A DNA stretch of 64,000 bases from Bugula neritina (Eukaryota > Animalia > Bryozoa), in contig OZ037767.1 of the NCBI GenBank assembly GCA_964035545.1, forward strand, positions 8,752,581-8,816,580. The letters are read 5' to 3'. Every line of letters begins with the position of its first letter. Position 1 is the first letter of the stretch. This document shows positions 26,510 through 59,119 of this stretch, piece after piece. The notes below the pieces were generated by a model, which was not told where the DNA came from, made no database searches, and saw only the letters and a list, made by a program, of their open reading frames with translations. The position numbers were made by a program, and so were the translations under genes.

Positions 26510-29500
26510 ATGGCTGTACTTACCACAGCAGTTCTAGTGGCAATAGCAGTGGTGTTGCTGAGTTATAACTTCATAAAATGGCTGAAGGTGAGTAAGACAA
26601 ACAATCAATTTTACTAATTTATAAGCTGTCTGCTTGAAATCTAAATATTTTCCTATTTAAAAATTCACTGAACCAATAGCATAGGTTTATGTTTTCTAAA
26701 TATAAGCATTTTGGGATGCTGCTTGTTAGGTGAAGCATCAACTACTCTAGTTTTGTAGCAGCGGCAGCCTACCTGCTCAAGCTTGCTACCTGCTTCTGAA
26801 ACCACCAATTAAACAATAGATTTAGGTCATTGCTCTTTCAGAAGCCACAAAATCAAATGGTTTATTTCAAAGTTAATAGCAATAAAAAGTGGAAGCTGTA
26901 GTTCATTTATCTGTTGTATGGTTTCGGGTTTTATGCAGTTTGTGTAGTATAAATTTTTAGCGGAGTTCTTTTTTTATCAAATTCCTTTTAAAGTTTATCT
27001 TCTGTGATTTCACTGCTTTGCTTGGTATGTAGTCTGTATTTTATCTGCTGTTTTGTTTATTTAAAAGAATCCTCTAAGGAAAATACCAGGTCCTACAGGG
27101 TTGCCACTATTTGGTAATACATTCTCTATTAATCCAAAAAAGCTTCACATGACACTGTATGACTGGGCAGAGAAATATGGAGATATTATGAAGATATCAC
27201 TATTCAACACTCCTGTAGTTGTGATTAACTCAACTGAGATGGCATATGAGGTCCTCGGAAGAACTGGTAATGTTGACGTAAACTCGATAACACACAATAT
27301 ATTAATAATAATAGTTATTAAATTAATATTCATATGAATGCATTAATTGTGCTACAGGAACAGATTTTCAAGGTAGACCAGAAAGTTTGCGGTCTGAAGT
27401 GTTGATTGGTAAAGATTTAGCTTTTGCTGTAAGTTATCAAAACATTTTATAGATGAATATTTTGAGATACTATTTAAACTTGCAAAGTAGCATCAGTTAT
27501 AAGTTGCTTGTAGAGCCCGTAGCACACAGCACCTAACTTTGGCATAACTCTTTGCTTCCATCTTAGTTCTTAGAGTGTATTAGAGAATAGAGTGCTGTGA
27601 ATACTAATTTAAACAATGCTGTGTTAGTTATTGGAAATATATTGCAAGTTGCACTCCAGCCAGCTGAGCTTTATAGACTTCCATAGATAAAAACACTCAA
27701 TTGTGGTTGCAGATTTCTAGATATGGGTGGTTTCCAATTTGAGTGATTGTTGGTCACGTGATCAAGATCTCTTGTTATTGTCTGAACCACTTGTTGCTTG
27801 CTGCTTTTGTAATATTCCTAAAGTAACTATAGGATTAGCAAAACTTCTGATCAACCTGATTCCACATAGTTTCATCATCAATTATTCAGTTTCTATAATT
27901 CCACCAGTAGGCAAGACTTGAAAAGGTGCTTGTAAGGAATGTAGCAGTGTGTCTTTTTAGGATGTGAGGAAACATGGATATCAGGAGATGCGGAGCATGT
28001 CTATAAAGGCTTTCAAAGCTTATGGTGAGGGCGTAGCTCATTTGGAGAAAATAATACAGGATGTCACAGCTAACCTTGTGCAAGATATCACCAAACATGA
28101 TGGAAAGCCATTGGACACTGACCAACTAGCCTACGGCTATTTCTGCTGTGTTATTGCATCAATAGTAAGAATATTTCACAGTATAAGTGTACGACAGTAG
28201 GATGCATGATAGAGTAGATTTCTGATCTAGTTATTTCTAAACTGTTGAAAAGTCACTTGTGGTAAGATTTTAGTTGTTGTGCTATTACAATTAACTTTGA
28301 TATTTCAAGTTGAAAAATCAAAGTTGATTTTCATGTTATTGAACCAGTTTGTCAAAAATACTACTCTTGTAGTTTGCCAGGACCAACATTATTTTCACAC
28401 AAAATTACTGCTAATGTGTTAATAGTTCAATATTTCTGGAAATTCTTCCCCCTGCTTTAAGGGAAGTTTGGAGCTTGTTGGTAAACACATTAAAAATATT
28501 AAATGAGAAAATTTATACCCATACATATTACCTACAAAATTATATTAATTTCTATCAATGTTATTCGTTCCACTTAAAGCAAGATAGCATGCTGCGCTGG
28601 TTTAGAAACTGTGTGTACATCAATGTCTGTAATTGACAATATTGATTGAAAATGTTAAACATTGATGTGAAGTTTTATGTGAAATAAATCAACTGCCAAT
28701 CTTTTTCAATTGCTAAAATTGCTTATGGAATAACACAATGTATTCACATAATGTATACTGTAGCTAGTTCACATGTATTAAATTAACCAAAGGCATTAAT
28801 TTTTGAAAATCTTCTAACTCTTGTGATGTGAATTGTAAGATATGACAACACTTCTAAAGGTCTCCTTCCTCATGAGAAATTTTTTGGCATCTTTGAAAAA
28901 TAAAAAAAATTTGTTACTCAGCTAAACTATATGCGAGGTTGTGAGACATGCTCTGCAACTTACTGCTAATATTATATATAAGTAGTATATGTGGAGCATT
29001 TGGGACCCCATCCCTGTGTTATATTCCCCATTACTCACACCGAGAAATCATTTTACTCACGGCTGGGGTAATTAATTATACATTAATTTTTTTATTTTTT
29101 TACTCATGCAAAATTATATGTAGAAAACTTGGGACCCCATCCCTGTGTTATATTCCCCATTACTCACACCGAGAAATAATTTTACTCACGGCTGGGGTAA
29201 ATAATTATACATTAATTTTTTCTTTGTTTTTTTTACTCATGCAAAATTATATGTGGAGCATTTGGGACCCCATCCCTGTGTTATATTCCCCATTACTCAC
29301 ACCGAGAATTCATTTTACTCACGGCTGGGGTAATTAATTATACATTAATTTTTTTCTTTGTTTTTTTACTCATGCAAAATTATATGTGGAGCATTTGGGA
29401 CTCCATTTTTGTGTTATATCCCAATTACTCTAAAACAGATGAACAGTTACTTTACTCTGTGTTAATATAAAAGTGAATATGAACCAAATAAAAGTTGTGA

Positions 29501-32500
29501 TATTTGAAATTATTTTTATTATTGTGGTAGATGTGAAAACAAGCACATATACTCAAGTCCATACCGTGCTAGCAAAATGACTAGATTTGTTCATTCATCT
29601 ATAGTTCATGATTTTGTATGGTCTACGTTGTCAGAGAATTGGTTGTGCTGCTCTCCTTTTTTTGTGGAAACAAAGCATGTGAAGCATTTTAAGAAAAAAT
29701 ATAAAATGTTAACCATAAACGAAGTTAAATTGTGTAAAAATCTTGGAAACATTTTAATATCATGTCCAAATTTTCCTCAAAACATCAACACATTTATTAA
29801 ATATATGCTCAGCATTTCAAATGTTTCAAGAGAAAACAAGTATTTTAAAATAATGTGCATCATTGTTCAGTTATCAGATTCATTGCTTGTTCAGCATGAT
29901 ATAAAGAAAATTGAAACTTTGATTGAGATATGTCAGCAACATATTGATAGTTCATGTAAGAGCAAGTATTTGTTTATTTTACATTTGCTTGGAATATTAA
30001 TGATGATAATATGTTTGTACATTACGTATAAACAGATATCTTATTAGGTAAGCTATATGTAAAAGCTTTATTCACATTATTTTTTGGACAAACAATGATC
30101 ATATACATTCGAAATATTATATTATACTAAATGCATTGAATAATATTCAAAGTATGGTGATATATAATTGGATTGCAAAGTGAAAGTATTCGTTGGTATA
30201 AGATAGGTTTTGTAATTTTGTAATAAATATTTTGAACATTTGTTTGTAAAGAAGTATTCAACTAGACATATAGTGCAAATAATTGGAGTCTTGTGAAAGT
30301 GTTGTTATTAATTATTATTATTATTATTGGTTGTATCACAGCTTTTTAGCTGGTGTAACCTTTTATAACCACAACCTAGTTTCACTAGGTCGATGGTATG
30401 ATTATTATTATTATTATGATTGTTATTGTTTGAAGTTACATAATGCATATTATAATAATATTATGCATGCATTGTGAAAACTTTCTTTTGCAGAACCCTA
30501 TAGTAGCTTGTCCATGCATGGATGTGTTTGAATAATTTGAGTATTTACATGCTTTTATATATTTCTTCTAAGATGATTAATTAAAATGAAGACAGGAAAT
30601 ATTTCAAGTGTTAACTTTGCCTTCCACAAAATTCCTTCATTATAGACAATCATGAGCTTTTTATAACCAATGAAACCAAAGCTTTTTCAACCATGAATTC
30701 AAGAGTTAACTACATTATTTTGCTAAATCATTCAAGCTTATCAGTTCATTTGTCATTCTTGTTTTGCAGAAAAGGAGTTTTGTGACAGTTGTTGTAATTA
30801 TTGGATACCACAGTTTACTAATGGACAAATTATTACAGAATGATATTCCATCGTCAACATTTCATAAAGCAATTTACAATAAAGTGCTACTTTACCAGAT
30901 ATGCAATCAAATATGGATTGAAACCAAAAAGCTTGCTTATTATTCATGTGAAGCTTGTCTTAACCCAAACAGAATATTTGCTCATACATGCTTACACATA
31001 TGGAATGAAACTCAGCTTTTAGACAATGGTTGGGCAAAAAACTTTACTGAAAAGTATTTCAAGGATGCATTAAATAATGTTTCTTGGAAGAAAATACAAT
31101 TGTATATGGAAAGGTATAATCATTTAAATAGAGACAATAGGAAATGTAACAAAATGTTTTGGATAACAAGAAGTCGAAGATTGTTTCTACAAAAAACACT
31201 ATTATCCTCTCTTAATAATATTGTCAAGGAAGAAGAACAATTTTATATACAAGTATAATAATTTGTTTAAAGGCAATGCATACATTTAAAAATTATTATT
31301 TACTTTTATACTCTAGTATTTACGTTTCTCATTCTATCACTGTGAATAACATAATAAAATAGAATGTTGATGTGAGTTGACAAAGTATGTTTTATAATTT
31401 CATCTTCAATTTTCATAAAAATTAAAGGTTTTGATTTTCTGGATTCATTTGAATATAGCATACCAACCATGCAACATCTCAGCTTGATGGAACAAATTTT
31501 CCGTCATCAAAAATCATTGCTAGCTATAATTTTTTGCTTAACGACAGCTCTAATTACTCTAACTGTTTATAACTCAGTTTCTGAAGAAAGTAAAGCAGTT
31601 GAATCAATTAAAAATTTACAAAAAATATTATTCTCAACCGATAATATTACATTACTTGAAAGAAATTCTACAATATAAATAAATGGAGAATAAAGAAATA
31701 GACATTTCCCTTCATTCGCCATTCACAGGAATTATTAACGGTAAACATTAATTACTAAACCAACTCACTTCCTAGCAATTTCCCCATTATTTTTTGTCAA
31801 GTCATGGATGGAATAAATTGATTAGATTGATTTAATTACAAATGCTTCCTATATAATTGGTTTAAGCGGATTAAAACCGTCTTAAGAAAATTAAATCTAA
31901 AATGATGAAGTATAAATGTTGCTAATGTATTATAAAATTGTGGTATTACAAAAATTAAAATAGATTCACAGGAGATTGATAAACTAAAAGTGTAAATGGA
32001 ATTAGCTTTTACTAAGATTATTTTTTGATTGCGTGTCAATAAAGCGGAAAAGAAAAATAAAGCGGACACAAATAATGATTTATCGCAGTCAAGTCTTATA
32101 CAGAATGTAGTTAAGCTTTATTTTGCAATTACCTAAAGTTTGTATAAACAATTTTTAGCTCAACTATTTTATTCAACTGCAGTAAAGTGAAATGAAACCA
32201 AGTTGGAAAACATAATTGTTGATACAGGTCCTACTGGATCCGGAAAAAGTGTTCTGATGAAAAAGATTTTGGAAAACAGCAACAGTCTTATATTCCCAAA
32301 TGTTGAAGAATGCATTATTAATTACAGTGTTTGGCAGACATTGTACGAACAAATTCAAGTTCCATTTCCAATTAAATTTTTAGAAGGAATTACAAATATT
32401 GAAGATATTCCAAGAGACAATAAGCATAGGCTAATTATTATTGACGATTTGATGAATACTTTATCTGAGTCACAAGAAGTGTGTGACCTGTATACAAAAT

Positions 32501-35500
32501 ATTCTCACCATTTGAATATTAGTGTAATTATATTAGTTCAAAATCTGTTTGAAAAAGGCAAGTATTTTCGAACAATAAGTTTAAACACTCATTATTTATG
32601 GTTGCTAAAGTCTGTTAGAGATACATCAATTATATCTACATTAGGAAGACAAATGATGAACTCAAAGTTTTTATCTAAATGCTACAAAGATGCAGTTAGC
32701 AAAAAATTTGGTCACCTATTTATTGACATGAAAGCCTCATCAGATGATAAATATAGAGTAAGATCCAATACATTTGATGAAGAAGTTGTGGTATATGTTG
32801 ATCAGTAGCTCAATAGATCATGACTTTTATTATTATAATTCTGTTTTTATCAATATTGCCATTTATTCTGCAAAGTTTTGCAATATTTTTTAAATATTTT
32901 CATACAAACAAAAAAACAAAAAAATATACATTTTCTTTTACAAATTTACTAATATCAAGAATTTTTTTCTTAGGTCCACCAAACAAGAGTATATCAAACT
33001 ATTTTGTTGAGTCAGTTTCAAGCAACAATATAATTTTATAAACAAAATTTATTTTCATAAATCTCTTGGAAGCATTCAGAAAAAAACAATGTTATATAAA
33101 AATGCTTTATATAAAACTGCTTATATAAAGGATGTTATATTTTTAAAAGTTTAACAATGTAATGCAGAAATCTTTAAAATTTTCAACTTTGTTAAAAGAA
33201 TGAAAAAAACTTATGTTGCAAATGTATTTTAAGATTGATTTCAAATATGTATTGTGAGTAGAGTTTAGAAAGCTAATCAAAAATTTTTAGTAATCTTAAG
33301 ATACGGAAGTAAAGGGTGCATCATAATAATATACTGAAAAATAGATTTTTTTATTCAATTTGAAGTGAGTCTTGAAGGATAACTTAAGTTTAAAGTAACA
33401 GTCATGGGTTAAATTTTTTTAGAAAAATTGTTCAACCTCTTAAGTTACCCATTGGCTAGCTGAAAACCAAAAAGCAATCGGATTGAATAGTTATTTTTAG
33501 TAGGAGGAGAATGAGTTAAGCATGATTAATTGAAATTTTTTGTATAAAATATCTATCTTTTCGATGTTTCACCATTATCAGTTTGTGATATCAATTAAAA
33601 ATCTGCCTCAAGTCAAAAGAAAATAAAATGTAAGTAATATTTCATATATAAATAATAAACAAAATTTTATGTGAAAATTAAATGAAATTATTAAAAGAAT
33701 TTTTTCTTTGTACGTAGCATCAAAAAATTATAAAGTTTGTGTTTAGATTTTAAATTAATGATTTTTAGAATAAATAAAAAATATGAGTGTTTTGGATGAT
33801 GGACTGGTTAAGTGTGGATATTGTGGAAATATTTGGGATGGCTGTGCACAGTGTGACTGCTATAACATTTTTCCAGAGATATATAATCGTGTTGAAGAAT
33901 CGAATCAAGTATGTTGACAAATATTATGTTTCTAGGTGCACCTAAATATTTAGTGAAACTTGATTATGTTATTTTGGAGTTACCCTTTCATGAATGTGTT
34001 AGTACTTGTTTTGTGGATATGCGGAGCTTGTCCACAAAACATAATGAATTATTCAAGCAGTAATGCAGTCATGAAGGGGCAACTCTAAAATACAATAGCA
34101 TCACAATATTATTAGCTATATATAAATATATATATTTTTTTGTTTTTATAATTTTTTACTTCTTGAAATATTTTAGAAAAGTTTTTTTTCTGTAAGTTTA
34201 TTTTGTGTTTGATAATTTCAAACCACTTTAACTTAATTATGTTTGTGCAAATATGCTTTTAATAAGTAATTTTTTTTTGTAGATGCCTCCAAAATCTCAA
34301 CTTAAAAAACTTGTGAAAACCTTTATCAATGATGAAGCAATTGAGGTGAATGATGGAGAATATGAGGAAGAAATGTCATCTCAACTTGTACCAAAAAAAT
34401 GTAAAGGAAAAGGAAAAGGCAGACCAACTGCAAAGGTGGGTGTTAACCAGGGTTGGGGTAATTGTAATTTGTAATTGTAATTGGTTGTAATTATTTACAT
34501 TTTTTCAAGTAATTGAATGTAATTTGTAATTGATGTATAAAAATGTAATTGTAATTAATTACATATTTAATGTAATTGATTTTTACAATTACTTTATAAT
34601 TACATGTCAATTACTTCAAACTTTGAAATCCTAAAAGTTTCATACTTTTCCTACCATGCCTACTGTTAAATAACAAATTCAGATTAATTGTCAATGTGGT
34701 ATAGTATTACTGTTGAGTACAAAGGAAGTTCAGCACTGTCAAAATTGCCCCTGCTAGTTGGACCCTAGAAGTGAAATTGCATAACTTCTATTTATCTCTT
34801 GCGAGAACAAAAGTAATTGTAATTGTAATTAATTACATTGCCATGTAATTGTAATTGTAATTAATTACATTACTATTTGACTGTAATTATAATTGTAATT
34901 GTAATTGACAAATTATCATGTAATTGTAATTGTAATTAATTACATTCACATGTAATTGACCCCAACCCTGGTGTTAACTTTTAATTCAGAAATTAACTTT
35001 GATTTTAAATGGATGAATTTTATTCACATAATTTAAACAATTTTTAAAATTTACAGACTTCTACAATTAAACGAAAGCTTGATTTGAGCAGCGACGACAA
35101 TGTAGAAGATGATATATCATCAAAACGCGCTTTGATGAACAAGGAGGCTCAACAAGAAATTGAGGATAATTTGGCCATGTTCAAAAAGTGGAGTGCCAAG
35201 ATGAACAAATATTCTTCTACATCTGCTTGCTCTGCAAGCACAAAAGGTTAGTATTTCTAGGTTAATGATATTGTAATCTGCGTAAATTTCATGAATATTC
35301 TGAGTATTTGATTATGTTAAAGGAAGTGATATCGAGGAGGTGGATTCAACTCCACGTAGGGTTCTTCTGCCGACACCTTCCTCTGCATCTACTATGACCA
35401 TTGCCAATTCACCACCACCACATCATTTTCAAAATCTATCATGTGATGATGATCATGTGTATACGATTCGCTTAGAGGATGCGAAAGTTGAGGACCTTCT

Positions 35501-38500
35501 TATAGAGGTAATTAATTTTTGAAGAGTTATATACAAGTTTATTTTTGATGTGTTTAGGGACCTATTTTTTTACTTTTATATCTTATTAACAAATTTTTTT
35601 CTTCTATGCAACTAAACTATTATAATATTTTATGCATGTAAATTTCTATGTTAAGGGAACTGGTAGATGGCTCTCAATTTACCACAAGCTTGACGACAAA
35701 AAGAGGAATATAATGATTGTTGCACGTAACCAACTCAGTCAGGGATGTAAGTAATTTTGCTATTTGTAGTTATTTAATATTTGTAAGTATGTGATTTGCC
35801 AAAATTACTCAAACGTTAATTTAACATAAAATAAATATATATATTTTTTTGTTTTAGTCTTGGCGCCACGAAAAAAGTGGGCTAATGGCGCATTTCAGGG
35901 AGACCCAATTGGCTATAATGTCAAACTGGCCCAGTCCAGTCATCTAGTCAAATTTATCCAAGGTATTGAGCGGGAAATAGCTGCAAAAGGTTATGTAGTC
36001 AAGAGTAGGACCAATTCCTCCCATACATACATCAGTGTTAGAGGAAATGCCATCAGTAGCGACACAACGTGAGTATACTATAAATATCCATATTATACTA
36101 AAAAAATTCTTTTTTATTTGAGTTCAAAATCGAAAAAATAACTGATTAAATTGCGTCATGTTAATTTACATAGGTTCTACAACCGTGACAAAGAAATCAC
36201 GTTTGAAGAGGCAGTTTCTATAAAAGACGAGCAGATGGAAGTATCTGTATGTATGGAATTGGAGAGTGTTGTGGAGATCGGAGAACTGAAGTTTGTAAGA
36301 GCTCGTGTGAACAGCATAAGAATGGAAAAGACATGCCGTCAACAACCAGAGAACAATCAGCATATTAACATTTGTAAGATGAAAAATTTTTTTGCCAGTG
36401 TATGACACATTTCGCCGAGTTTTGCATGTCATAGTTGTACTAGTGTGTTTTCGAGAACGTTTAATCTCCTAAGACATATTAAAACATTGCATACCTCTGT
36501 TCAACATTTCTTATGTCAAAACTGCAACACTCAATTCACTTCTGAAATTGACTTACAAATTCACCACAACACTTGCAATGAAAACTTATGTATTCAAATT
36601 GGGGGAGCACATTCATCTCATAATCACTCAGATAATGAAGAGGGTCAGACAACTTTTCAATCTCATAATAGTGATATTGATAATTTAATTAAAAATCGAT
36701 GGAACTCAATTAAATCGTATTTTAAGTGTAGAAAAATTGTTGACGTATACAATTTCCGCATGGTTAATCAAAAGAATGCATTTATACAAACCATAAAACA
36801 TGTATATATAACAAAAATAAAAACTCAAATTAAACTTCAATGCTGCATCGGATTTGTTCTAATTAATAATTCAACAAAGCAATTGAGATACTTTCACAGT
36901 TCTGTTAACAACACTGCATTGTTTTCCAAGCCTCAATCAGTTGGAAATCTTGAACAATTTTTACAAGTCTGTGAACAAATAAATCAAACAGATTTGCACC
37001 AGCATGCAATTTCTAAAAGACCAAACAGTTCATGGAGTGTTGCATTAATTACTAACATAACATTTTACTTCACTAAATTAACATTTGGCAAATTTGGTGC
37101 ACCAATTACTTTACCTAAACACATTGTGAGAAACAAATCAATTGTTTCGCTTACCTCTAACCATCATGGAAAATATAATGACAATCTATGTTTCTTTCGT
37201 GCTCTTGCTCTCAGCAAAATATGCAAATGTAAAACAAAATGCATGTGTGTCAAACGCATTGAGCAATTGACTCTCAAATTCTTTCGAAAGTTTTGTGCTG
37301 TAAAATCACTCCAGTGTAATAAAAAGTCATTTGAGGGTGTGGATATTCAAGATTTTGGTCTACTGGAAGAAATTTTCAATATAAAAATTACAGTTTACAC
37401 ATTGGATAGCTTTGGAGTGTCCTCAATTCTAGTACAGTCAATGAAATCAAACATGCATGAACTTAATTTATGCGCTTACAAAAACCACTTGTGCTATATT
37501 AAAAATGTTCAGACTTTTTGTAAATGCTTCAGGTGCAAGACCTGCTCCCAATGTTTTGACCGCAGATCAAATTTAACAAGGCACACAACTGGATGTGCCA
37601 AAGCGCAATCTCAATTAATTTACCCTCAAGAAACCTTTTTTCCTAAACCATCAATATTTGAAATTATTGAAGAGCAAACAGGAATAGCTATTCCACCTCA
37701 ATTAAGATTTTATCCATATCGTGCAACTTTTGACATTGAGTGTTACCTTGAACCAATTAGTAACTGTAATACATCTATGCTTTCTTTTACGTCTAACCAC
37801 AAGGTGATGAGCATCAGTGTTTGCTCTAATATTCCTGGCTATACTAGCCCACTATGCTTAGTATCAAATGGAAATGTTGATGAGCTCATGGAAGGTTTTG
37901 TAATTTACCTTGAGCTATTAAGTTCAGTTGCCAAACAGTTATGCCTAAAACAATTTGAAAACATTTTTAATGACCTTGAGACTGTCAAAAATGATCAGCT
38001 TTTATCAGAAAAAAATTTTCAAAGCATGAATTGGTCTAATCAGAAAGTTTACAATAACAGGTCTATTGAAAATCTAAAAATGCAACTAGAATCCTATTTT
38101 AGTGAGCTTCCAGTTATTGGTTTTAATAGCCAAAAGTACGATATAAATTGCATGAGAACCCCACTTGTTAGAAATCTATTGAAGCATGATAAAATTCAAT
38201 TTGTAATAAAAAGAAACAATGCAATGAAGTGTATCAAAACTAAACATTTAAAATTTCTTGACATCATTAATTTTATAGCTCCAGGGTTTTCATATGCAAA
38301 TTTCATCAAAGCATACAATTGTAGTATGAAGAAAGGCTTTTTCCCATATGAATATGTCACATCATTAGAAAAGCTCAATGAGAATTCTCTGCCTGCACAT
38401 GAAGCTTTCTACAGTAGTCTAACTCAATCAAATATCACAGCAGCAGACTATCAGAATTGTAAACAGGTTTGGCAAAACAAAAACATGCTCACAATGAAAG

Positions 38501-41500
38501 ATTATTTGATTTATTACAACAATCTTGATGTATTACCATTTTTAGAGGCAGTTGAAAAACAACACATGGTTTATCGAGAAAAAGGCATTGATATGTTCAA
38601 GGATGGAATTAGTGTTCCATCTTTAGCTACTAAATGGTTATTTAATGAATTAAATACTAAAAACTTTTTTATTCCGTTGATTGGCAGAAAAGATGCAGAC
38701 TTGTATAAAACTATACGGAATAATATTATTGGGGGTCCAAGTATTGTTTTCCACAGATATCATGAAGCTGACAAAACTTTTATTCGTAAAAATTCATTTG
38801 ATAGTAAATCAAAAGTTTGTAAAAATGTGTTTGGCTTTGATGCCAATGCTTTGTATTTGTATTGTGCTATGCAAGAACTTCCAACAGGTTCAATCATTAG
38901 GAGACGTAAAGAAAATAACTTTCGTCCAAAGTTTTGTGACTATTTTGGGAGACTGAGTGTTGAATGGTTAGAGTACTGCTCCTACTTGAATGGTGTGTTT
39001 ATTCAACATAAATATAATAAGGGTGAACAAAAAGTTGGGCAACACGGGCTCCCAGTAGATGGTTATTGCAAGCAATTGAAAACAGTTTTTCAGTTTCATG
39101 GTTGTTTATTTCATGGACATAAGTGTGTAAAAACAAAAGGGGTAGTATTTAATCCAATTAACGGAAAATCCAATATTTGTAATTCCTTCTAAAAATTTAA
39201 TTGGAAATGGAACTTGAATTTGTTCGTACAATGTCTGCCAAACACTGTAATTAATAATGCATTCTTCAACATTTGGGAATATAAGACTGTTGCTGTTTTC
39301 CAAAATCTTTTTCATCAGAACACTTTTTCCGGATCCAGTAGGACCTGTATCAACAATTATGTTTTCCAACTTGGTTTCATTTCACTTTACTGCAGTTGAA
39401 TAAAATAGTTGAGCTAAAAATTGTTTATACAAACTTTAGGTAATTGCAAAATAAAGCTTAACTACATTCTGTATAAGACTTGACTGCGATAAATCATTAT
39501 TTGTGTCCGCTTTATTTTTCTTTTCCGCTTTATTGACACGCAATCAAAAAATAATCTTAGTAAAAGCTAATTCCATTTACACTTTTAGTTTATCAATCTC
39601 CTGTGAATCTATTTTAATTTTTGTAATACCACAATTTTATAATACATTAGCAACATTTATACTTCATCATTTTAGATTTAATTTTCTTAAGACGGTTTTA
39701 ATCCGCTTAAACCAATTATATAGGAAGCATTTGTAATTAAATCAATCTAATCAATTTATTCCATCCATGACTTGACAAAAAATAATGGGGAAATTGCTAG
39801 GAAGTGAGTTGGTTTAGTAATTAATGTTTACCGTTAATAATTCCTGTGAATGGCGAATGAAGGGAAATGTCTATTTCTTTATTCTCCATTTATTTATATT
39901 GTAGAATTTCTTTCAAGTAATGTAATATTATCGGTTGAGAATAATATTTTTTGTAAATTTTTAATTGATTCAACTGCTTTACTTTCTTCAGAAACTGAGT
40001 TATAAACAGTTAGAGTAATTAGAGCTGTCGTTAAGCAAAAAATTATAGCTAGCAATGATTTTTGATGACGGAAAATTTGTTCCATCAAGCTGAGATGTTG
40101 CATGGTTGGTATGCTATATTCAAATGAATCCAGAAAATCAAAACCTTTAATTTTTATGAAAATTGAAGATGAAATTATAAAACATACTTTGTCAACTCAC
40201 ATCAACATTCTATTTTATTATGTTATTCACAGTGATAGAATGAGAAACGTAAATACTAGAGTATAAAAGTAAATAATAATTTTTAAATGTATGCATTGCC
40301 TTTAAACAAATTATTATACTTGTATATAAAATTGTTCTTCTTCCTTGACAATATTATTAAGAGAGGATAATAGTGTTTTTTGTAGAAACAATCTTCGACT
40401 TCTTGTTATCCAAAACATTTTGTTACATTTCCTATTGTCTCTATTTAAATGATTATACCTTTCCATATACAATTGTATTTTCTTCCAAGAAACATTATTT
40501 AATGCATCCTTGAAATACTTTTCAGTAAAGTTTTTTGCCCAACCATTGTCTAAAAGCTGAGTTTCATTCCATATGTGTAAGCATGTATGAGCAAATATTC
40601 TGTTTGGGTTAAGACAAGCTTCACATGAATAATAAGCAAGCTTTTTGGTTTCAATCCATATTTGATTGCATATCTGGTAAAGTAGCACTTTATTGTAAAT
40701 TGCTTTATGAAATGTTGACGATGGAATATCATTCTGTAATAATTTGTCCATTAGTAAACTGTGGTATCCAATAATTACAACAACTGTCACAAAACTCCTT
40801 TTCTGCAAAACAAGAATGACAAATGAACTGATAAGCTTGAATGATTTAGCAAAATAATGTAGTTAACTCTTGAATTCATGGTTGAAAAAGCTTTGGTTTC
40901 ATTGGTTATAAAAAGCTCATGATTGTCTATAATGAAGGAATTTTGTGGAAGGCAAAGTTAACACTTGAAATATTTCCTGTCTTCATTTTAATTAATCATC
41001 TTAGAAGAAATATATAAAAGCATGTAAATACTCAAATTATTCAAACACATCCATGCATGGACAAGCTACTATAGGGTTCTGCAAAAGAAAGTTTTCACAA
41101 TGCATGCATAATATTATTATAATATGCATTATGTAACTTCAAACAATAACAATCATAATAATAATAATAATCATACCATCGACCTAGTGAAACTAGGTTG
41201 TGGTTATAAAAGGTTACACCAGCTAAAAAGCTGTGATACAACCAATAATAATAATAATAATTAATAACAACACTTTCACAAGACTCCAATTATTTGCACT
41301 ATATGTCTAGTTGAATACTTCTTTACAAACAAATGTTCAAAATATTTATTACAAAATTACAAAACCTATCTTATACCAACGAATACTTTCACTTTGCAAT
41401 CCAATTATATATCACCATACTTTGAATATTATTCAATGCATTTAGTATAATATAATATTTCGAATGTATATGATCATTGTTTGTCCAAAAAATAATGTGA

Positions 41501-44500
41501 ATAAAGCTTTTACATATAGCTTACCTAATAAGATATCTGTTTATACGTAATGTACAAACATATTATCATCATTAATATTCCAAGCAAATGTAAAATAAAC
41601 AAATACTTGCTCTTACATGAACTATCAATATGTTGCTGACATATCTCAATCAAAGTTTCAATTTTCTTTATATCATGCTGAACAAGCAATGAATCTGATA
41701 ACTGAACAATGATGCACATTATTTTAAAATACTTGTTTTCTCTTGAAACATTTGAAATGCTGAGCATATATTTAATAAATGTGTTGATGTTTTGAGGAAA
41801 ATTTGGACATGATATTAAAATGTTTCCAAGATTTTTACACAATTTAACTTCGTTTATGGTTAACATTTTATATTTTTTCTTAAAATGCTTCACATGCTTT
41901 GTTTCCACAAAAAAAGGAGAGCAGCACAACCAATTCTCTGACAACGTAGACCATACAAAATCATGAACTATAGATGAATGAACAAATCTAGTCATTTTGC
42001 TAGCACGGTATGGACTTGAGTATATGTGCTTGTTTTCACATCTACCACAATAATAAAAATAATTTCAAATATCACAACTTTTATTTGGTTCATATTCACT
42101 TTTATATTAACACAGAGTAAAGTAACTGTTCATCTGTTTTAGAGTAATTGGGATATAACACAAAAATGGAGTCCCAAATGCTCCACATATAATTTTGCAT
42201 GAGTAAAAAAACAAAGAAAAAAATTAATGTATAATTAATTACCCCAGCCGTGAGTAAAATGAATTCTCGGTGTGAGTAATGGGGAATATAACACAGGGAT
42301 GGGGTCCCAAATGCTCCACATATAATTTTGCATGAGTAAAAAAAACAAAGAAAAAATTAATGTATAATTATTTACCCCAGCCGTGAGTAAAATTATTTCT
42401 CGGTGTGAGTAATGGGGAATATAACACAGGGATGGGGTCCCAAGTTTTCTACATATAATTTTGCATGAGTAAAAAAATAAAAAAATTAATGTATAATTAA
42501 TTACCCCAGCCGTGAGTAAAATGATTTCTCGGTGTGAGTAATGGGGAATATAACACAGGGATGGGGTCCCAAATGCTCCACATATACTACTTATATAAAT
42601 AAGCAGGTTTGCCATCCTAAGTCGTAGAACCTACTAATCTAGTGCATATACTTTCATTCTGTCATGTCCAGGCTTTTTCTTTATATAAAAGTGTCAGCAG
42701 TTTTTGAGTAACAATCAGAATAATGTAGATTTATGTTGTGTTTGCTTCACGAACATTTTACTGAAAACGTTGCATTCAAGTTGGGTGATATTTTGTCACG
42801 GTTTGTAGTTGTATGGTGAACAGTATACATATGATGATCCTGTGTGTCAAAAACTTCATATTATGAACAAGGCATCAATGAAAGCAGTTAATCCTGTGTC
42901 ACTGGGACACCTATTGGACTGTTTCCCAGTATTGTTTCGGCAAAATGTAATACTGAAGGAAACTATAGCACAGATTAGAAATACCAAAGATTTTATAGAC
43001 AGAGTGTTCTATGAAAAGATCAATGAATACAAGGTACAAATGTAAAAGTTGATAGTATATATTGTATTCCCAGTGAGTAATGTGCTTAATTTATCAAAGT
43101 CCCAGTCTGTTACAATAGTATGCAGGTCTAGAGCTTTTAAAGCTTGCAAAATGTGCCTGTGAAACATTTTAAAATAATATTTATTGCAGAAAAGACAGCA
43201 AAAAGTAATATATCTGTTAATTTAAGCCAAATGTCTCGGGTATTATATACCTGCCAGCTTAAGCCAAGTCAGGGAAGGTAAAACTTGTGGGCCAACAATA
43301 CACTGTATTAGCTAACAGTGATCACTTCTGTATGCTCCTTAGTATTTTATTTCTTTAGAGTTTGCAGCTCTTCCAATTCTTACAGACATTAAGTATCCCG
43401 TGAAAGTTGTTTATATTATAGTCTGGGTTTGACGAGACCGACATGAGAGGAATGTTGGATCAACTCATATTAATTCAAAGACAGGAAAGTGGTGAAGGGA
43501 AACAGGTAATGGATGACGCGGCAATCCGTGGAATACTGTTGAATTTTGTGGTCGGAGGTGAGTAGAACAGCTGTATTGGCATGACTCATGCATCACAATT
43601 GTTAATATGGTAAACTTACAGCTTTTACCATCAGATATAATCTGTAATTATTTTAGGAATGGAGACAAGCCACACAGTCATAAGTCAGGCTTTTCTTGAT
43701 TTCCTCCATGAACCAGATTTACAGAAGAGACTCCAGGATGAGATTGACAGTCAGTTTGATTCAACTCATATCATCACATTGCAAGACAGGTAATGCACAC
43801 ATGTGCATGAAATCGTGCAAACTTTTGCACACTCACTTGCACATTGGGTGATTTGCTATAGTAATGAAGTTTACACCTTTATATCACTCAGCTGAATGTA
43901 GGGGAGCTGTAGTGATGATTTACCCAGTGTCCCCGTGGTGTAATGGTTAGCACACTTGCTTGCAAGCCAGAGGTCTTGGTTCGATTCCCAATGGGGGCAA
44001 TTATTTTTTCAGGGAGTAAATATTAAAGTCTTGTTAGAATCTATATTCTAAGCCATAATAGATTGAGGCAAATTGTACTCTTTACAGTTAGTAAAATTCA
44101 ATTATGACTATTAAATGCTGCAAATTCAACAGTTGCTTCGATTTATTTAACAAAATACTGTGATCAAAAATTTATACCAAAGCTCTATGCTTCTATTAGT
44201 TATGTTTGGGATTAATGTGCTAAATTGGTTTATTAATATATACATATGCTACTCATTTGTAATATTTGCTGTTTATTTATTTTAATAATGAGCATTTCGG
44301 TAGATCCGCTAAAATTTCACCACATGTACCGCACACTGATATTGCTTATTATTATAGGCATAAACTACCATTACTGCAAGCTTACATTCAAGAAAATATA
44401 AGATATAAGACGGTCAACCCGATACTTTTAGCACATGAAACAATCCGAGACACACAAATTGCTGGATACAAAGTAAGTCATTGGTTTTTATTTTCTTCAC

Positions 44501-45989
44501 TATAGCATGGTCTGCCTGTTCTATCTAATGTGACTAATTTGTATACCTGTGTTAATTTGTTATTTTTTTATAAAGCACCATTCAAAACTCATCCAATCAG
44601 CATAGTGTACCAACTGGATATCTCACCATTCTAACAAATTATTGTAGACGTTTTTATAGACATACAATTTTTAATTGTTTTTATAAACACTTAATTTAGA
44701 CATTTTGAAAAAAACTAAAAGAGTCATAAATTTTAGATACGAAATGGAATATTGCACTTAACAAAAGTTGCACAACTATATTTTGAAAACGTGCATTATG
44801 CAATTGAATTTGCAGAATTTTATATAAATTATAATGGTGAGATATTTGGTTGGTACAGTTTGCTGATTGGCTGAGTTTTACATGATTTATTAGTAACCTA
44901 TACTTTGTTAGAGATACTAAAATAGCCTAGAGATCTTACTACAGCATAGCTTTGTTTCATCTAATAATGCACTATTGTCTCAACATAATGCAAGTGTAAA
45001 AAGTTTTGGTTTGGCATAGGTTTAGACAACACAATCATGTAACACACGGACAGTTTATTACGTGTACTTTTTGTTACAGATACCATCAAGAACAACTGTA
45101 CTGATCAATGCCTTCTATACAGCTCATAACCCTTGTGTTTATGATGAACCATTCAAAGTGAAACCAGAGAGATTTCTTGATGAGAATGGGAACCTTGTAC
45201 CACCTGGTCACCCTGCTAGATACAAGTGTGTGCTATAAACATCTTTCTATTACCACTTGTAATTTAGATAACAACTCTTAGAAAAAAATATCCAATCATT
45301 AACCGTTGCATACATTCTGTTGCGTTCGATTTTATACAACATCCGTTCAAAAATGTTTCATATTCTCAACTCCTGATAATATTTAATTTATACTTTGCCT
45401 GTTAAATTATCTCAGCTCCATGTGATTGTGAATGTCAAAGATCAATATGTTATCCTAATTTATTTACTCTCACTGTAGGTGAGTGTTCGAAAGTCTAGCG
45501 TAACATTTGATAACAAGCATAAGCTTAATGTATAGTACACCTGCTGTATATTATACTGCAGTTGCCCAGAGATTGGTTCCCTGCTCATTAGGCTTGATAT
45601 TTCAATAAATGCCTATTAATGGTATAAACCCATATCTTATGTTATCTCTGATGCTCTTTCCATTTACTAAGTTGTTTAATAAACACATTTAGGTTTCGTA
45701 AAAAGTTGATGTTTTAATATTAAACTATACTCATTAATTTGCTAATTCAGGCATGTAATACATGTGGACTTATTTTTCTTTTAGCTCCTTAACATTTGGA
45801 AGTGGCAAAAGAGTTTGTATCGGGAAAAGCTTTGCTGAATCCAGGCTATTTCTATTTTTGGCCAATATTCTGCAAAAGTTTACTTTACAACCTGTTGGGA
45901 AGCTACCTTCACGTGATCTGCACACATATGAGTTGGAGATAGTGTTGAGACCCCCCAGTGTATCAGCCAAGTTTATTAGAAGGCAATAG
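26510..45989 (+). CDS. Cytochrome P450 CYP-2, 503 aa; exons 26510-26587, 27068-27266, 27358-27428, 27961-28164, 42809-43033, 43422-43557, 43657-43789, 44358-44472, 45080-45225, 45785-45989; intron 4 hosts the Polinton
   Basis: PGPTGLPLFGN, GGMETS, ENIR, KPERF, FGSGKRVCIG; exons total 1512 nt, GT-AG junctions, same exon sizes as CYP-3 and CYP-4. Confidence 0.92.
28986..29430. repeat. Subterminal tandem array, about 3.4 units of 129-133 bp (mirrored at about 42142-42586)
   Basis: gggac(c/t)ccat anchor recurs at 29002, 29131, 29264 and 29397. Confidence 0.92.
29577..30047 (+). CDS. Polinton accessory protein, 156 aa, helical with C-terminal TM segment
   Basis: ATG-started ORF of 471 nt in very AT-rich DNA; hydrophobic tail YLFILHLLGILMMIICLYITY. 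Confidence 0.6.
   Translation: MTRFVHSSIVHDFVWSTLSENWLCCSPFFVETKHVKHFKKKYKMLTINEVKLCKNLGNILISCPNFPQNINTFIKYMLSISNVSRENKYFKIMCIIVQLSDSLLVQHDIKKIETLIEICQQHIDSSCKSKYLFILHLLGILMMIICLYITYKQISY
30821..31258 (+). CDS. Polinton accessory protein, 145 aa, with CxxC-x8-HxC zinc-binding motif
   Basis: ATG at 30821; motif CEACLNPNRIFAHTC. Confidence 0.65.
   Translation: MDKLLQNDIPSSTFHKAIYNKVLLYQICNQIWIETKKLAYYSCEACLNPNRIFAHTCLHIWNETQLLDNGWAKNFTEKYFKDALNNVSWKKIQLYMERYNHLNRDNRKCNKMFWITRSRRLFLQKTLLSSLNNIVKEEEQFYIQV
31469..31678 (+). CDS. Small single-TM protein, 69 aa
   Basis: ATG in acc-ATG context; TM segment LLAIIFCLTTALITLTVY; stop lies 4 nt before the ATPase ATG. Confidence 0.55.
   Translation: MQHLSLMEQIFRHQKSLLAIIFCLTTALITLTVYNSVSEESKAVESIKNLQKILFSTDNITLLERNSTI
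31683..32808 (+). CDS. A32/FtsK-HerA-like packaging ATPase, 212 aa, 2 exons (31683-31740, 32228-32808)
   Basis: Spliced N-terminus MENKEIDISLHSPFTGIING|PTGSGKS (Walker A), Walker B LIIIDD, SHHLNISVIILVQNLF, RTISLN; GT-AG phase-1 intron. Confidence 0.9.
32820..33041 (+). CDS. Small protein with N-terminal hydrophobic segment, 73 aa
   Basis: ATG 11 nt after the ATPase stop; FIIIILFLSILPFIL followed by a basic stretch; could be a chance ORF in AT-rich DNA. Confidence 0.35.
   Translation: MTFIIIILFLSILPFILQSFAIFFKYFHTNKKTKKYTFSFTNLLISRIFFLGPPNKSISNYFVESVSSNNIIL
33783..33917 (+). CDS. 44-aa Cys-rich micro-protein (CxxCGxxWDGxAQCxC), absent from the ORF track
   Basis: MSVLDDGLVKCGYCGNIWDGCAQCDCYNIFPEIYNRVEESNQVC*; a G-richer island in AT-rich DNA. 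Confidence 0.6.
   Translation: MSVLDDGLVKCGYCGNIWDGCAQCDCYNIFPEIYNRVEESNQVC
34283..36405 (+). CDS. Six-exon Polinton gene, 353 aa, putative OB-fold ssDNA-binding protein (exons 34283-34435, 35057-35246, 35323-35507, 35656-35746, 35858-36068, 36174-36405)
   Basis: Five GT-AG introns with consistent phases (0,1,0,1,2), 1062 nt in frame. The gene model is well supported; the SSB function is a pattern-based inference. Confidence 0.75.
34448..34970. mobile_element. hAT-type MITE nested in intron 1 of the Polinton 6-exon gene
   Basis: TIR cagggttgggg / ccccaaccctg, 8-bp TSD GTGTTAAC (34440-34447, 34971-34978), subterminal (tgtaat)n arrays. Confidence 0.9.
36406..39170 (+). pseudogene. Protein-primed family B DNA polymerase (pPolB), C-terminally truncated by the right inverted arm
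   Basis: N-terminal C2H2 fingers, DNLCFFRALA...HLCYI protease-like segment, ExoI TFDIEC, ExoII GFNSQKYD, KGFFPY, ExoIII YNNLDV, IIGG, motif A FDANALY, then VDGY..FQFHGCLFHGH; motifs B and C (KxxxNSxYG, DTD) are missing. Confidence 0.92.
39171..42591 (-). repeat. Right arm of the inverted repeat; duplicates the accessory ORFs (41525-41995, 40314-40751, 39894-40103) and a truncated ATPase gene on the minus strand
   Basis: Reverse complement of 28981-32401; identical ORF translations. Confidence 0.95.
43929..43999 (+). pseudogene. tRNA-derived sequence (pseudo-tRNA or SINE head) in CYP-2 intron 7
   Basis: A box TGGTGTAATGG and B box GGTTCGATTCC with acceptor-like pairing gtcccc/gggggc, but an imperfect anticodon arm. 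Confidence 0.6.
44569..44890. mobile_element. Degenerate MITE-like inverted-repeat element in CYP-2 intron 8
   Basis: About 55-bp imperfect inverted repeats (aaaactcatccaatcagca...atatctcaccatt / aatggtgagatat...tgctgattggctgagtttt). Confidence 0.6.
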
Positions 45990-47286: not shown

Positions 47287-50200
47287 ATGGCTGCATCTAC
47301 AATGCCCATCCTAGCAGCAATAGCGGGTGGTTTATTAACCTATCTACTCATCAAGTGGCTAAGGGTAAGTGACTCATGCTATTCTATTTGGTTAGCAAGT
47401 GCTGCAATGTGCAAACTAATATAATACACAAACCAATTCATTAAGTTGCCAATTCACTGCATGTCTTTCATAGGATCCTTTAAGGAAAATACCAGGTCCT
47501 AGAGGGCTGCCATTATTTGGCAATGCACTCTCTATCAACCCAAAACAACTTCACATGATACTATATGACTGGGCAGAGAAATATGGAGATATTATGAAGA
47601 TATCACTATTCAACACCCCTATGGTGGTGGTCAATTCAACTGAACTGGCCTATGATGTTTTAGTGAAAACTGGTAAGGTTTTTACAGCTATAGTAACTAT
47701 TGTATACGGTTCAGAAACGCTTGATATCTTCCAACTTATATAATGTTTCTCATAGAGCAACTTAAATGCAAATCCCAGTTTCATTACACGCGAACTATAA
47801 TGCTTTTGCAAGAATCATCTTGATACACTGAAGATATAAATACATTTCTGATAAGTTATACTGATAAGTTATACTGATAAGACACCTTTTTTCACAATAT
47901 AGTACAGTGTTGCAGCCTTCGCATAGCAATTCGCCTATATAGTAGCGGCTATAGCATACTTGCTCTACCTAGTCAGAAGTTTTGCCTATTTGTAAGCATT
48001 AAAGCATAATTTTTAATTTTGGCACCTGTTTGCTCATGTCAAGTCAGCCTGCGTGTAAAAAATTGATTTTGAAACCAAATAGAATCCAAGGTTATATAAA
48101 AACTGCCAAAATACTTCAAATAATAATTGTGAGAGAGGTAAACGTGATTATGCAGTCAATTTTACAGTCTTTACTAGCGCAACTGTACCCACCATATAAT
48201 ACAATTTGTTAAATATATGCCAGTATAGTGAGTATATGCATGCTATGAACTGAATATTATATTGTAGTATGTGATACATTAGCAAATATAACATTTAACA
48301 GTGACTAACTACAACAGCATGTATTATAATTTATAATACATGTATCATAATCTATAAAGTCTAGATTTTTCCTATGTTCATGTGAGCAATTAAAAGTGGT
48401 TCAATGTTATTATGTTGATTTTGAATCTATAATATTTTTCGAAATAAGGCACAGACTTTCAAGGAAGGCCGTCAAGCGTAAGAACTGACAGAGTAATGGG
48501 CAAAGATCTGGCTTTTCAGGCAAGCAAAGTGTCTAAATTAATATTTTAATATATTTTTGTTAAAGCTACACAAAGTCGTTGTAATTTCTTGCTTCGTCAA
48601 AAGATAATTAATAACTTATGCAAATACTTCAAGTTTCAAATCTTTACTGAAATGAATTACATAAGACATTAAAAACTCGATTAGTTATTGTGCTTAGAAA
48701 TTATTTTTAAAAAGCCAAAGAATGTAACCTAATACTCTTTATAAGTTTGAAACTTTGTTTTAAGTTCCAGTTTTAGTAAGTAGCAATAAGTAAACTTCTT
48801 TATTTTTTCTAATATTATTGTGCAATATTTTTATATTCCAAAATGGTAGCCTAAAAAATTTGCTTACTCTGTAGCCACTACCAGCATTGGACCTTGAAAT
48901 ATCAGAATTTTAGCTCTTATCAAACAAAGTGATTACCTACAATATTATACCCATTTATGTATATTCATAAATCACTAGGCTAATTAGTTTAATAAATGGA
49001 ACATTTCAGTCAATAGATGATGAAGGCTACCAACAGAGAAGGAACTTAGCTATAAAAGCACTCAAGGGATACGGGGATGGAGTGGCTCATCTGGAGAATT
49101 TAATTCAAGACATTACCACCACATTAGTTGATGACATCACAAAACAAGATGGCCACCCTATTGACACTGACCAACTCGCCTATGGATTTCTTTGCTGTGT
49201 AATGGCTTCTGTGGTATGCTGAAACAAGCAAATGCTTTTACATACATCATATTTTTACAAGATATGTCTAAAACTAAGTACACATATGATAAATAAATAT
49301 CTAAAATAGATCTTAGTGTAGCATTTAGCTTAAAGTGAATGGTATATTTATAATCAACGACATTATAAGAATTAATGTTTATTATTTAGCAGGAAGCAGC
49401 TATGGTCTAGGGGTTAGAGTGTTTGGCTTAGCAAACACAAAGTCATTGGTTTAATCCCAGTAAAGGCCATTGGTGACGTTAGGAAGTGCATTTAGTCATA
49501 ATTACTCCTGTGCCACATAAAAATGAATAAGTTCTTAGCCCGCTTTAAAAAGCCCCTTCAATCATAGGTTCTCACAGGGATGGCGACTATAAATTTGCGT
49601 GTGTGAGCTTTTATTTATTTAGCAGCTATTTTGCTATTGTACTGCATGCTTTTCAGTTGTATGGTGAGCATTATTCCTACGATGACCCTGTTTGCCAGTC
49701 CATCAGTGAAATGACCAGAGAGGTGATGATAGCCACAGCTCCAGTCTCAGTTGGTGAAATACTGGACAAGTTTCCTATCCTGTTCAAACAGAAACTACTT
49801 TTGAAAAAGTCCCAGGAACAAATCATCAAAGCTCGTCAGCTTGTAGATAAATTTCTCTACCAGAAGATTGCAGCCTATAAAGTTAGATATATGATTAATC
49901 TCACCCGGTGTTTGCTTTCAGTATTTGATGAGTAGAATAAAATGAGCAGAAAAATTAATGATTATTAAGATATTTTTGGATTTTTATAAATAAATTACAT
50001 TAGTAATTATATAAGCTTTGGAAAACTTGGATGCAATTTACATTAAATGTTTAGTTGACCAGCTACAAATTCAAACACATTTTGAACAAAAGCAATTCTA
50101 AACCAGCATACAAATATTTTTTATTTATGTACAGTCATAGCAAAAATAAGGGCTGTATAATAAATATTTGACTGACGTTTAATGATTTGGTAAACAAGTT

Positions 50201-52277
50201 ATTATGAGGCTAAATTAATTTAAGTACACAATTTGTCACTACAGGCTGAGTTTGATGAGAACTGTCTAAAGGGAATATTGGATCAGCTAATCTTGATTCA
50301 GAAACAAGAAGTTGGTACAGATGACCCAGTTATGGATGATGATGCAATTCGGGGCACAATGCTGAATTTCGTAGTAGGAGGTGAGCTACAACACAAGTTT
50401 GGTAAATGTGTAATTTTATTAACTGATCATTCATCACACTAGTCATTTTGATCTTGAAAGAAGGATTTAAATTAACTATAAGCAATTAAAGTTGCGCATC
50501 TTTAATTTAATTAATAACACTGTCTTAGTTTGCCTATATATACTGTTATTTATATTAGCATGTTAGTTTTCTAGCATGCAAATCTTTTCTTAAAACTAGG
50601 CATTTATCACTTTACTTGAATGTTACCATTTTTAAGTAATTGAAATTGGCCTGTAAAAATTATACAATTAGAAATTGCAAGCAGTCAAACTTATAATTTT
50701 TTATTTCATAGCAGAGATGCAATTTTGAAATCTCTAACATTTTGTATTAGAAAATAGTTGAACCCTTAGTTGTGCTACACATAGACAAGTTAAAAGCTTG
50801 ATTTTGCAATATGTTTTGTAGGAATGGAGACGAGTCATTCTGTACTCTGTCAGGCTTTTCTTGATTTCCTCCATGAACCAGATTTACAGAAGAAACTTCA
50901 AGATGAGATTGACAGTCAGTTTGAACCATCTCATATCATAACTCTGAAAGATAGGTGCGAATGTATTGTGTATTGCAGTCATTGCGATATATTATGCATG
51001 CAATATCTTATAGTGGCAATCATATGCATGTAGTATGGTGAAAGTATAGCTGTTTATTATTCATATCGCCTGAAGTTTCGATACTTTCACATAGACCTAA
51101 GCTGCCTCTACTGCAAGCATACATTCATGAAAGTTTGCGGTACAAGACGGTTACACCGATACTGCTTCCACATGAGACCATTAGAGACACAGAGCTTGCT
51201 GGATACAAGGTACTGATATATACATATATTTAGCCTGGTCAACTACATGAGATACAATTAAATTAAATTTAATTTCATCAGTATATTTGAACAATTTTAA
51301 TTTAGGATATTAAATTATTACTATCACCGCCATACAGAGTTGATTAAAAAACTGTTTTTGACAGTTTTTTAAGTTTTGTTTGAAGTGTCTACTTTTAACA
51401 GACATTTTGCTTAATAACCAAAACTATATTATTTTCAATAAAATCTTTTCCATCATATAGAGTGTGAGAAGAGGCTCATTCAAGTCAGATTAAAAATATT
51501 ATTGAAATTAGGTGTTATAAACTAATAAATGAATCCTGTGGGTTTTAACTTCGCAATAAATATCTTATTACTAGCACTTTACCTGCATGTACGGAAAATA
51601 CTAAAACCTGTACTTCATTTTATTTTTAGATACCCGCTGGAACCACTGTACTGATGAATGCCTTCTACACAGCTCACAACCCCCGTGTTTATGATGAACC
51701 ATTCAAAGTGAAACCAGAGAGATTTCTTGATGAGAATGGGAACCTTGTACCACCAGGTCATCCTGCTAGATACAAGTGTGTGCTATAAACATATTATTTT
51801 TCTATTTTGGTGCATTTATGTTTATACAGAATTCATTTAAAAAGTGCTCCACATTCTTGACTCCTGATAATATTTAATTTAAAATGCTAAATACAAGTGT
51901 GTGTTATAAACCTGTACTATCTTTGAAAGAAATACAAACATTTTGTTATTGTGTGAAATGGTAAATCAATGCTTCATATTAAAAGTTTCTGATAACCATA
52001 TAACCTCAATCTTTGACTGATACAGGTAATTGGTCATGAACTTGAAAGACAGCCTTGGTTCATTATTTGTAGCTCTATATCATTTGGAAGTGGAAAAAGA
52101 GGCTGCATTGGAAAGAGCTTAGCTGAAACACGGATCTTCTTGTTTCTAGCCAACATTCTGCAAAAATTTGCATTAGAGCCTGTTGGAGAGCTACCAGACC
52201 GAGATCTCAGGAAATATGAGTTGGAAATAGTACTGAGACCTCCTAAAGTTTTTACTAAATTCATCAGACGACAGTAG
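47287..52277 (+). CDS. Cytochrome P450 CYP-3, 503 aa; exons 47287-47364, 47474-47672, 48449-48519, 49010-49213, 49657-49881, 50245-50380, 50822-50954, 51095-51209, 51630-51775, 52073-52277
   Basis: PGPRGLPLFGN, GGMETS, ESLR, KPERF, FGSGKRGCIG; intron 3 has a GC donor (48520). Confidence 0.93.
49395..49590 (+). mobile_element. Degenerate tRNA-headed SINE
   Basis: A/B-box-like tggtctagggg and ggtttaatccc, followed by ggtgacgttaggaagtgcat, which resembles a conserved metazoan SINE core as I recall it. Confidence 0.45.

Positions 52278-59023: not shown

Positions 59024-59119
<96 letters not shown>

Follow-up and report, generated by a model that had tools for sequence, protein, structure and literature searches.

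A Polinton of Bugula neritina with a 3.4-kb inverted terminal duplication and a truncated polymerase: a possible copy-back genome at a cytochrome P450 locus

Polintons, or Mavericks, whose Beta-type protein-primed DNA polymerase B (pPolB) carries a VSR insert (PMC10748475, PMC8502044, PMC8097293) are the closest match to the element described here from the bryozoan Bugula neritina. We analyzed a stretch of 64,000 nucleotides (nt), here called the window (contig OZ037767.1 of assembly GCA_964035545.1, positions 8,752,581 to 8,816,580). The element spans positions 28981 to 42591 (13,611 bp) and shares with these relatives the same polymerase with a weak Vsr match, an A32-like packaging ATPase, the ends, the 6-bp target-site duplication and a size of 13.6 kb. 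A VSR-like insert was reported in marine pPolB2 Polintons (PMC10748475), and the (AGT)2//(ACT)2 motif together with a 6-bp duplication, both also found here, was described for vertebrate Mavericks (PMC8097293). In contrast, the terminal repeats of the known elements are 100-1,500 bp (PMC10748475) or 46-1,447 bp (PMC8097293) long, compared with 3,421 bp in the window copy. Intact vertebrate Mavericks had no introns (PMC8097293), whereas the ATPase in the window seems to bear one; introns are known in dinoflagellate elements (PMC11957031). Furthermore, the polymerase of the window copy is cut, and integrase, protease and capsid genes were not found. It is not an autonomous Polinton.

Similar layouts are known from several unrelated systems. 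Copy-back defective genomes of RNA viruses have one break point, extended complementary ends and a lost replicase function. A single break and rejoining point with extended complementary ends was found here as well, but the window element is DNA and integrated, and the likeness is one of layout. In butterfly and polB-less Polintons (Pannagram preprint, 10.1101/2025.02.07.637071) core genes likewise lie in long repeats, elements without a working polymerase occur and transposon cargo is carried. There, however, the long repeat is a trait of the full-length family and contains whole genes, whereas here it is private to one copy and cuts two genes. Both long gene-bearing repeats and mobile Polintons lacking polB, the two halves of a copy-back interpretation, have a precedent in this preprint. 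In the extended terminal inverted repeats (TIRs) of Galileo internal sequence adjacent to TIR1 is likewise inverted in front of TIR2, with tandem units in the repeat (PMC3573991), and the same order, TIR1-internal...internal(inverted)-TIR2, is present in the window. Galileo differs in being a cut-and-paste transposon; its repeat extension was ascribed to chromosomal break repair, and it has no replicative free form (PMC3573991). During the expansion of poxvirus inverted terminal repeats the region inside the left repeat is likewise copied in reverse to the right end and right-end genes are lost, but these viruses are viable and non-integrating, have hairpin ends and lose only accessory genes (PMC10230479). 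A copy-back Polinton was not found described in the literature searched, which left most subscription papers outside, and no such element appeared in the available passages of PMC8502044, PMC3014272, PMC11161782 and 10.1101/2024.01.15.575659.

The two outer arms of the element (Table 1) are exact reverse complements. A mirror comparison, with coordinates summing to 71572, gave 0 mismatches in 3,421 positions and no indel, corresponding to an arm divergence below 0.09% (95% limit); mismatches start again at 32402 and at 28974. The element begins with AGTAGT, ends with ACTACT and is flanked by TATATA on each side. A first-pass annotation, made from the letters of this DNA alone, had described the arms, termini and matching flanks in the same way, without remarking that TATATA is its own reverse complement. 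The mirror extends 6 bp into the flank, and because of the palindrome the flanks cannot be called direct or inverted. Since TATATA accounts for 0.23% of host hexamers, a chance match of the two flanks is unlikely. The 64-kb window contains no N, and the inverted duplication is confirmed in the sense of assembled sequence. A duplication continuing into the host DNA was considered and rejected, as the flank palindrome is unremarkable: its score is equalled at 974 of 5,000 host sites. The single duplication pair, the identical arms and a private allele common to both also led us to reject a pair of head-to-head insertions.

The inner border of the right arm interrupts two genes, as the first-pass annotation had proposed. 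The truncated polymerase is identical to P0007, a polymerase of the family, precisely up to NPINGKS (39170), and the minus-strand ATPase copy in the arm is cut mid-gene. The polymerase frame comprises 928 codons and continues six codons into the arm. A family protein of 1,366 amino acids (aa), P0125, matches it with 98.9% identity over 895 residues (10 differences), the match ending at 39171; no frameshift was found over these 895 codons. P0125 itself shares 38% identity over 1,315 aa with P0036, a protein above the cut-off of PF03175 (Pfam DNA_pol_B_2). The window polymerase is cut at residue 895 of 1,366; the 471 residues lost include motif B (at 1092) and motif C (at 1193). The Polinton-type polymerase is thus present in truncated form and a complete one with motifs A, B and C is not. 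As these motifs and further genes are missing, we infer that the window copy would be unable to replicate or integrate by itself. The protein P0126 begins with the Met that comes first past the junction; this was given no weight, since gene callers start at Met.

Relatives of this polymerase were searched for in other collections. The single family protein gave no match in viral contigs, and the polymerase alignment gave there one match of 26% identity outside the window family. Three matches of 31-43%, none of them belonging to the window family, were obtained from prokaryote genome bins, where they lie on short contigs (L002 1513-4404, L003 61-3312 and L004 54-2899). The likely source of these contigs is DNA of animal hosts that was placed in the bins of their symbionts. 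In L003, a distant relative, the polymerase is followed by an ATPase and by an integrase-like start, the latter with no Pfam match. Nothing resembling this N-terminus was found in the element.

At the junction itself, 7 of the 8 preceding bases match the arm template two bases upstream of the arm start, a score that 73 of 20,000 random pairs reached when the microhomology was anchored at the junction. Compared with the continuation of the family sequence past the junction, there is a four-base overlap displaced by one base. These matches lend modest support to a microhomology-guided switch and do not indicate which polymerase made the junction.

A motif from the terminal unit had 0 matches in each of two contig collections, metagenome and viral. 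The family was then traced in public sequencing runs. The stretch or part of it was present in 22 of 24 listed runs; four of them (X1, X3, X6 and X10) were compared, all as contigs, which drop rare variants and whose depth does not equal copy number, and X21 and X22 (word share 0.22) were left out. A contig passes 39170 into other sequence in 4/4 runs. Likewise, contigs cross 32401/32402 unbranched in all four, as in a normal left-end layout, and those of X3 and X10 continue unbranched and in single dose to about 42220, that is 79 nt into the mirror of the 133-bp array. The median depth of the arm relative to the middle was 1.14 in X1, 1.34 in X6 and 1.13 in X3, the three DNA-type runs, and not 2 (9 arm and 17 middle bins, excluding the mixed junction bin and the bins of a MITE, a miniature inverted-repeat transposable element). 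The slight excess over 1 is unexplained. Together, depth ratios and unbranched contigs argue that intact relatives carry short terminal repeats of about 400 bp or less and not 3.4-kb arms. The first-pass annotation had named a 3.4-kb TIR shared by intact autonomous relatives as evidence against its interpretation, and this objection falls away.

Divergence of the window copy from the X3 and X6 majority contigs was 0.9-3.7%. Compared with the eight longest listed pieces of X1, it differed at 8 of 4,335 sites (about 0.2%) outside 35332-37890 and at 43 of 2,394 (about 1.8%) inside (p 9e-13). X1 is the closest run and may be non-independent of the assembly; relative to it the window copy appears to be a mosaic, derived from exchange between family members or from a collapsed assembly. 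In X6 and X3 the majority contigs skipped the high-depth MITE (531 nt), and in X1 the majority contig entered it. Together with the mosaic, this suggests that a MITE-bearing copy was remobilised recently and that family genomes exchanged sequence. Additionally, an allele at 41486/30086 was found in both arms and was absent from the majority contigs of 4/4 runs. Such a shared private allele implies that the right arm was templated by the left arm of this copy or of an identical sibling, or that both arms stem from one collapsed consensus. The locus marks a young, diverse and probably active Polinton family in this bryozoan.

At a probability of about 0.42, we favour a copy-back event during replication of a free genome, followed by integration in trans. 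That Polintons replicate extrachromosomally is a model drawn from the genes they carry. Here, protein-primed synthesis from the left end would have reached 39170, and the new strand would have re-annealed through a short microhomology at about 32402-32411 on the opposite strand. Synthesis would then have returned along the arm as far as the terminus, and the resulting molecule would have had normal ends on both sides and a panhandle of 3.4 kb. A co-replicating parent may have supplied polymerase and integrase in trans, and the integrase would have inserted the product into an intron of a host cytochrome P450 gene. We prefer this order of events because it needs one aberrant event and a normal insertion, because the templating parent supplies the missing proteins and because the family looks active and recombining. 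The full-length polymerase P0125 and the contigs reading past 39170 support it as well, and the absence of arm differences (0/3,421), set against 0.9-3.7% to the family, indicates that the duplication is young. Polintons without polB were reported to be still mobile, their mobilisation being left open there (10.1101/2025.02.07.637071), and left-to-right end replacement was described in replicating mpox genomes (PMC10230479).

Several observations weigh against a copy-back origin. No second copy is known, and a helper's integrase was not seen. The palindromic TATATA means that the target-site duplication cannot time the arm event. The anchored microhomology rule was chosen after the junction had been viewed; by plain local alignment the microhomology is nothing unusual, being equalled by 1,209 of 20,000 random pairs, and the join itself is imperfect, with one extra base or a two-base skip. 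Amplification of the MITE-bearing form is itself deduced from depth, which is not copy number. The 39170/39171 junction occurred in the contigs of 0/4 runs, a neutral result since contigs drop rare forms, and its motif gave 0 matches in metagenome contigs, to which the same restriction applies. Furthermore, 38 of 170 Galileo copies have extended or recombinant repeats, in a transposon without a polymerase of its own (PMC3573991).

Galileo leads to another, somewhat less probable sequence of events, in which a full-length Polinton integrated first and a later break was repaired in the chromosome off the left arm with deletion of the right-hand genes. If a strand invaded via the native terminal repeat, which is short, and was extended by about 3 kb before microhomology joining at 39170, the outcome would show the ends and the duplication seen here as well as the identical arms, the private allele and the imperfect microhomology. 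Repair of this kind, with the product TIR1-F1-F1-TIR2, was proposed for Galileo, and the same paper states that inverted-repeat expansion was reported for Polintons (PMC3573991). It also suits a single unamplified copy. On the other hand it asks for two events at one locus within a short time, as the arms including the native repeat are identical and the polymerase frame is intact, and for the removal of 1.4 kb or more of the polymerase together with all further right-hand genes. A full-length allele at this site was not seen, although no test aimed at it was made. The first-pass annotation had proposed a template switch during extrachromosomal replication: the rebuilding of the right end from the left stands, with some microhomology; the switch may have taken place outside the chromosome and before integration, but chromosomal repair yields the same product.

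It is unlikely that the structure is an assembly or library artefact, in which the reversed left arm was linked to the right host flank by a chimeric read (fold-back or amplification) or, the family having many copies, by a wrong exit from the terminal repeat. A collapsed repeat would also give perfect arm identity, the family is near-identical and probably multi-copy, and the junction was absent from the contigs of 4/4 runs and from metagenome contigs. Inverted amplification chimeras also carry short microhomology. However, no N occurs in 64 kb, host exons are in order and phase across the element, the 6-bp duplication is present, and the polymerase can be read through 895 codons without a frameshift, suggesting accurate long reads; an overlap of 4-8 bases is too short for an assembler to join without a chimeric read. 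We do not grade an artefact lower because no read across the junction was present in the data examined, and we regard a single, real rearranged copy as probable. A family that normally has 3.4-kb gene-bearing terminal repeats, with the window copy as a plain internal deletion, is highly improbable. Butterfly Polintons do have gene-bearing repeats of about 2 kb (10.1101/2025.02.07.637071) and arm depth is slightly above that of the middle (1.13-1.34), but this ratio is far from 2 in 3/3 DNA-type runs, contigs cross 32401/32402 unbranched in 4/4 runs with two running in single dose to about 42220, and the arm ends mid-ATPase.

Returning to the copy-back origin, the first-pass annotation had added that the product is a defective-interfering-like genome and implies a recently active full-length partner. 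Defective-interfering genomes are defined by amplification and interference; the likeness here is confined to structure, as no second copy, amplification or interference was seen, and this part is unsupported. For the partner, a closely related full-length polymerase exists in P0125, and integrase and capsid genes of a helper were not seen. As a whole, the broader picture of an integrated copy-back defective Polinton that records free strand-displacement replication, template switching and trans integration in an active bryozoan family with spliced genes is rather doubtful. There is one unconfirmed copy, and the timing of the event cannot be read from its sequence. A real junction recurring at several sites would document, directly in sequence, that free Polinton genomes switch templates and integrate in trans, and it would explain the origin of gene-bearing long repeats and of polymerase-less mobile Polintons. 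A single repaired copy would carry Galileo-type repeat extension over to Polintons, a smaller point. Either way, the element may be a hairpin source within a host gene. As both arms lie in one host intron, a read-through pre-mRNA would form a 3.4-kb RNA stem, which perhaps, at low probability, silences its own family in the manner of Mu killer of maize, likewise a rearranged transposon derivative (PMC8224964); here the likeness is one of geometry, with both arms in one intron.

Table 1. Features of the element and of the interrupted host gene (window coordinates; ORF, open reading frame)
Feature	Position	Strand	Remarks
Left target-site duplication TATATA, 6 bp	28975..28980	.	palindromic
Left arm, 3,421 bp, begins AGTAGT	28981..32401	+	family's normal left end; contigs link arm to 32402 onward in 4/4 runs
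3.4 copies of a 133-bp unit	28986..29430	+	family's own terminal repeat (about 400 bp or less) probably inside array
156-aa ORF, no family match	29577..30047	+	mirrored 41525-41995, minus strand
145-aa ORF, no family match	30821..31258	+	mirrored 40314-40751, minus strand; atlas scores <0.9, leads only
Putative first exon of packaging ATPase, then GT..AG intron 31741-32227	31683..31740	+	N-terminus profile
A32-like packaging ATPase, main exon with Walker A	32228..32808	+	134 homologues; match to Pox_A32 of Pfam (E 1.8e-4) misses the cut-off
73-aa hydrophobic ORF, no family match	32820..33041	+	
46-aa cysteine-rich ORF, no family match	33777..33917	+	
Putative multi-exon gene (about six exons) upstream of polymerase	34283..36405	+	exon-like blocks, GT/AG edges
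Host MITE (34448-34970), 523 bp, short inverted ends, 8-bp duplication	34440..34978	.	in first intron of multi-exon gene
Protein-primed DNA polymerase B, cut within VSR-like nuclease insert	36406..39170	+	motif A present, B and C absent
Junction of truncated polymerase and inverted arm	39170..39171	.	
Right arm, exact inverted copy of 28981-32401, ends ACTACT	39171..42591	-	holds cut ATPase copy (39171-39344)
Right target-site duplication copy	42592..42597	.	
Host cytochrome P450 exon before insertion	27949..28164	+	ends at phase-0 GT
Next host P450 exon, after phase-0 AG	42809..43039	+	resumes at residue 185 of homologue P0122

The packaging ATPase, a typical Polinton gene, seems to be split by a spliceosomal intron just before Walker A, which would be unusual in an animal Polinton. 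Its N-terminus was located with a profile built from 28 homologue N-termini: a 19-codon frame 487 nt upstream scored best of 7,197 16-mers (20.9, the runner-up reaching 8.4). Among homologues with Walker A in their predicted frame, the conserved N-terminus is missing from all of the 10 closest (50-66% identity), as expected if the intron is common to them. In X10, a run taken for RNA by guess alone, a contig covers 412 nt of the intron without a break, which counts against splicing. In the multi-exon gene upstream of the polymerase, the last exon weakly resembles the giant-virus clusters DUF5871/DUF2738 (atlas 0.76-0.83, a lead only); DUF2738 is presumably a single-strand DNA-binding family, and the MITE in the first intron is presumably hAT-like. 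The 46-aa ORF shows the pattern CxxC..WDG.AQC.C without a match in Pfam or PHROGs, and similar proteins presumably occur in large DNA viruses.

The first-pass annotation had listed no ORF for an integrase, an adenain protease or a capsid protein. For the retroviral-like integrase of autonomous Polintons this agreed with our search, as none of the 69 stop-to-stop frames (at least 38 aa, 29430-36410) matched integrase, protease or capsid families of Pfam, a weak result as regards capsids, because P0125, the polymerase of the family, likewise escaped Pfam. Protease and capsid gave no match in Pfam or PHROGs and no unexplained frame exceeded 182 aa, although Pfam is insensitive here and the genes may be spliced. 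In a PDB profile search the best 60 of 204 matches were all zinc fingers.

The flanks of the element consist of tandem cytochrome P450 genes. All four homologues found for one P450 exon are annotated Bugula neritina proteins with 73-78% identity, and other P450 exons in the window reach up to 96% identity to their homologues. The exons on both sides of the insertion are in phase 0 and meet at the same residue 185 of P0122, with the later exons in order. This continuity places the element in a P450 intron of about 1,027 bp without loss of coding sequence. In total, four tandem plus-strand P450 genes, closest to Bugula neritina proteins, were found in the window (6240-10669, 27065-45986, 47474-52274 and 57381-64000). 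Further upstream, positions 2441-2970 contain a tandem array in which a self-complementary 15-bp unit occurs about 26 times, and a TAG repeat comes after it.

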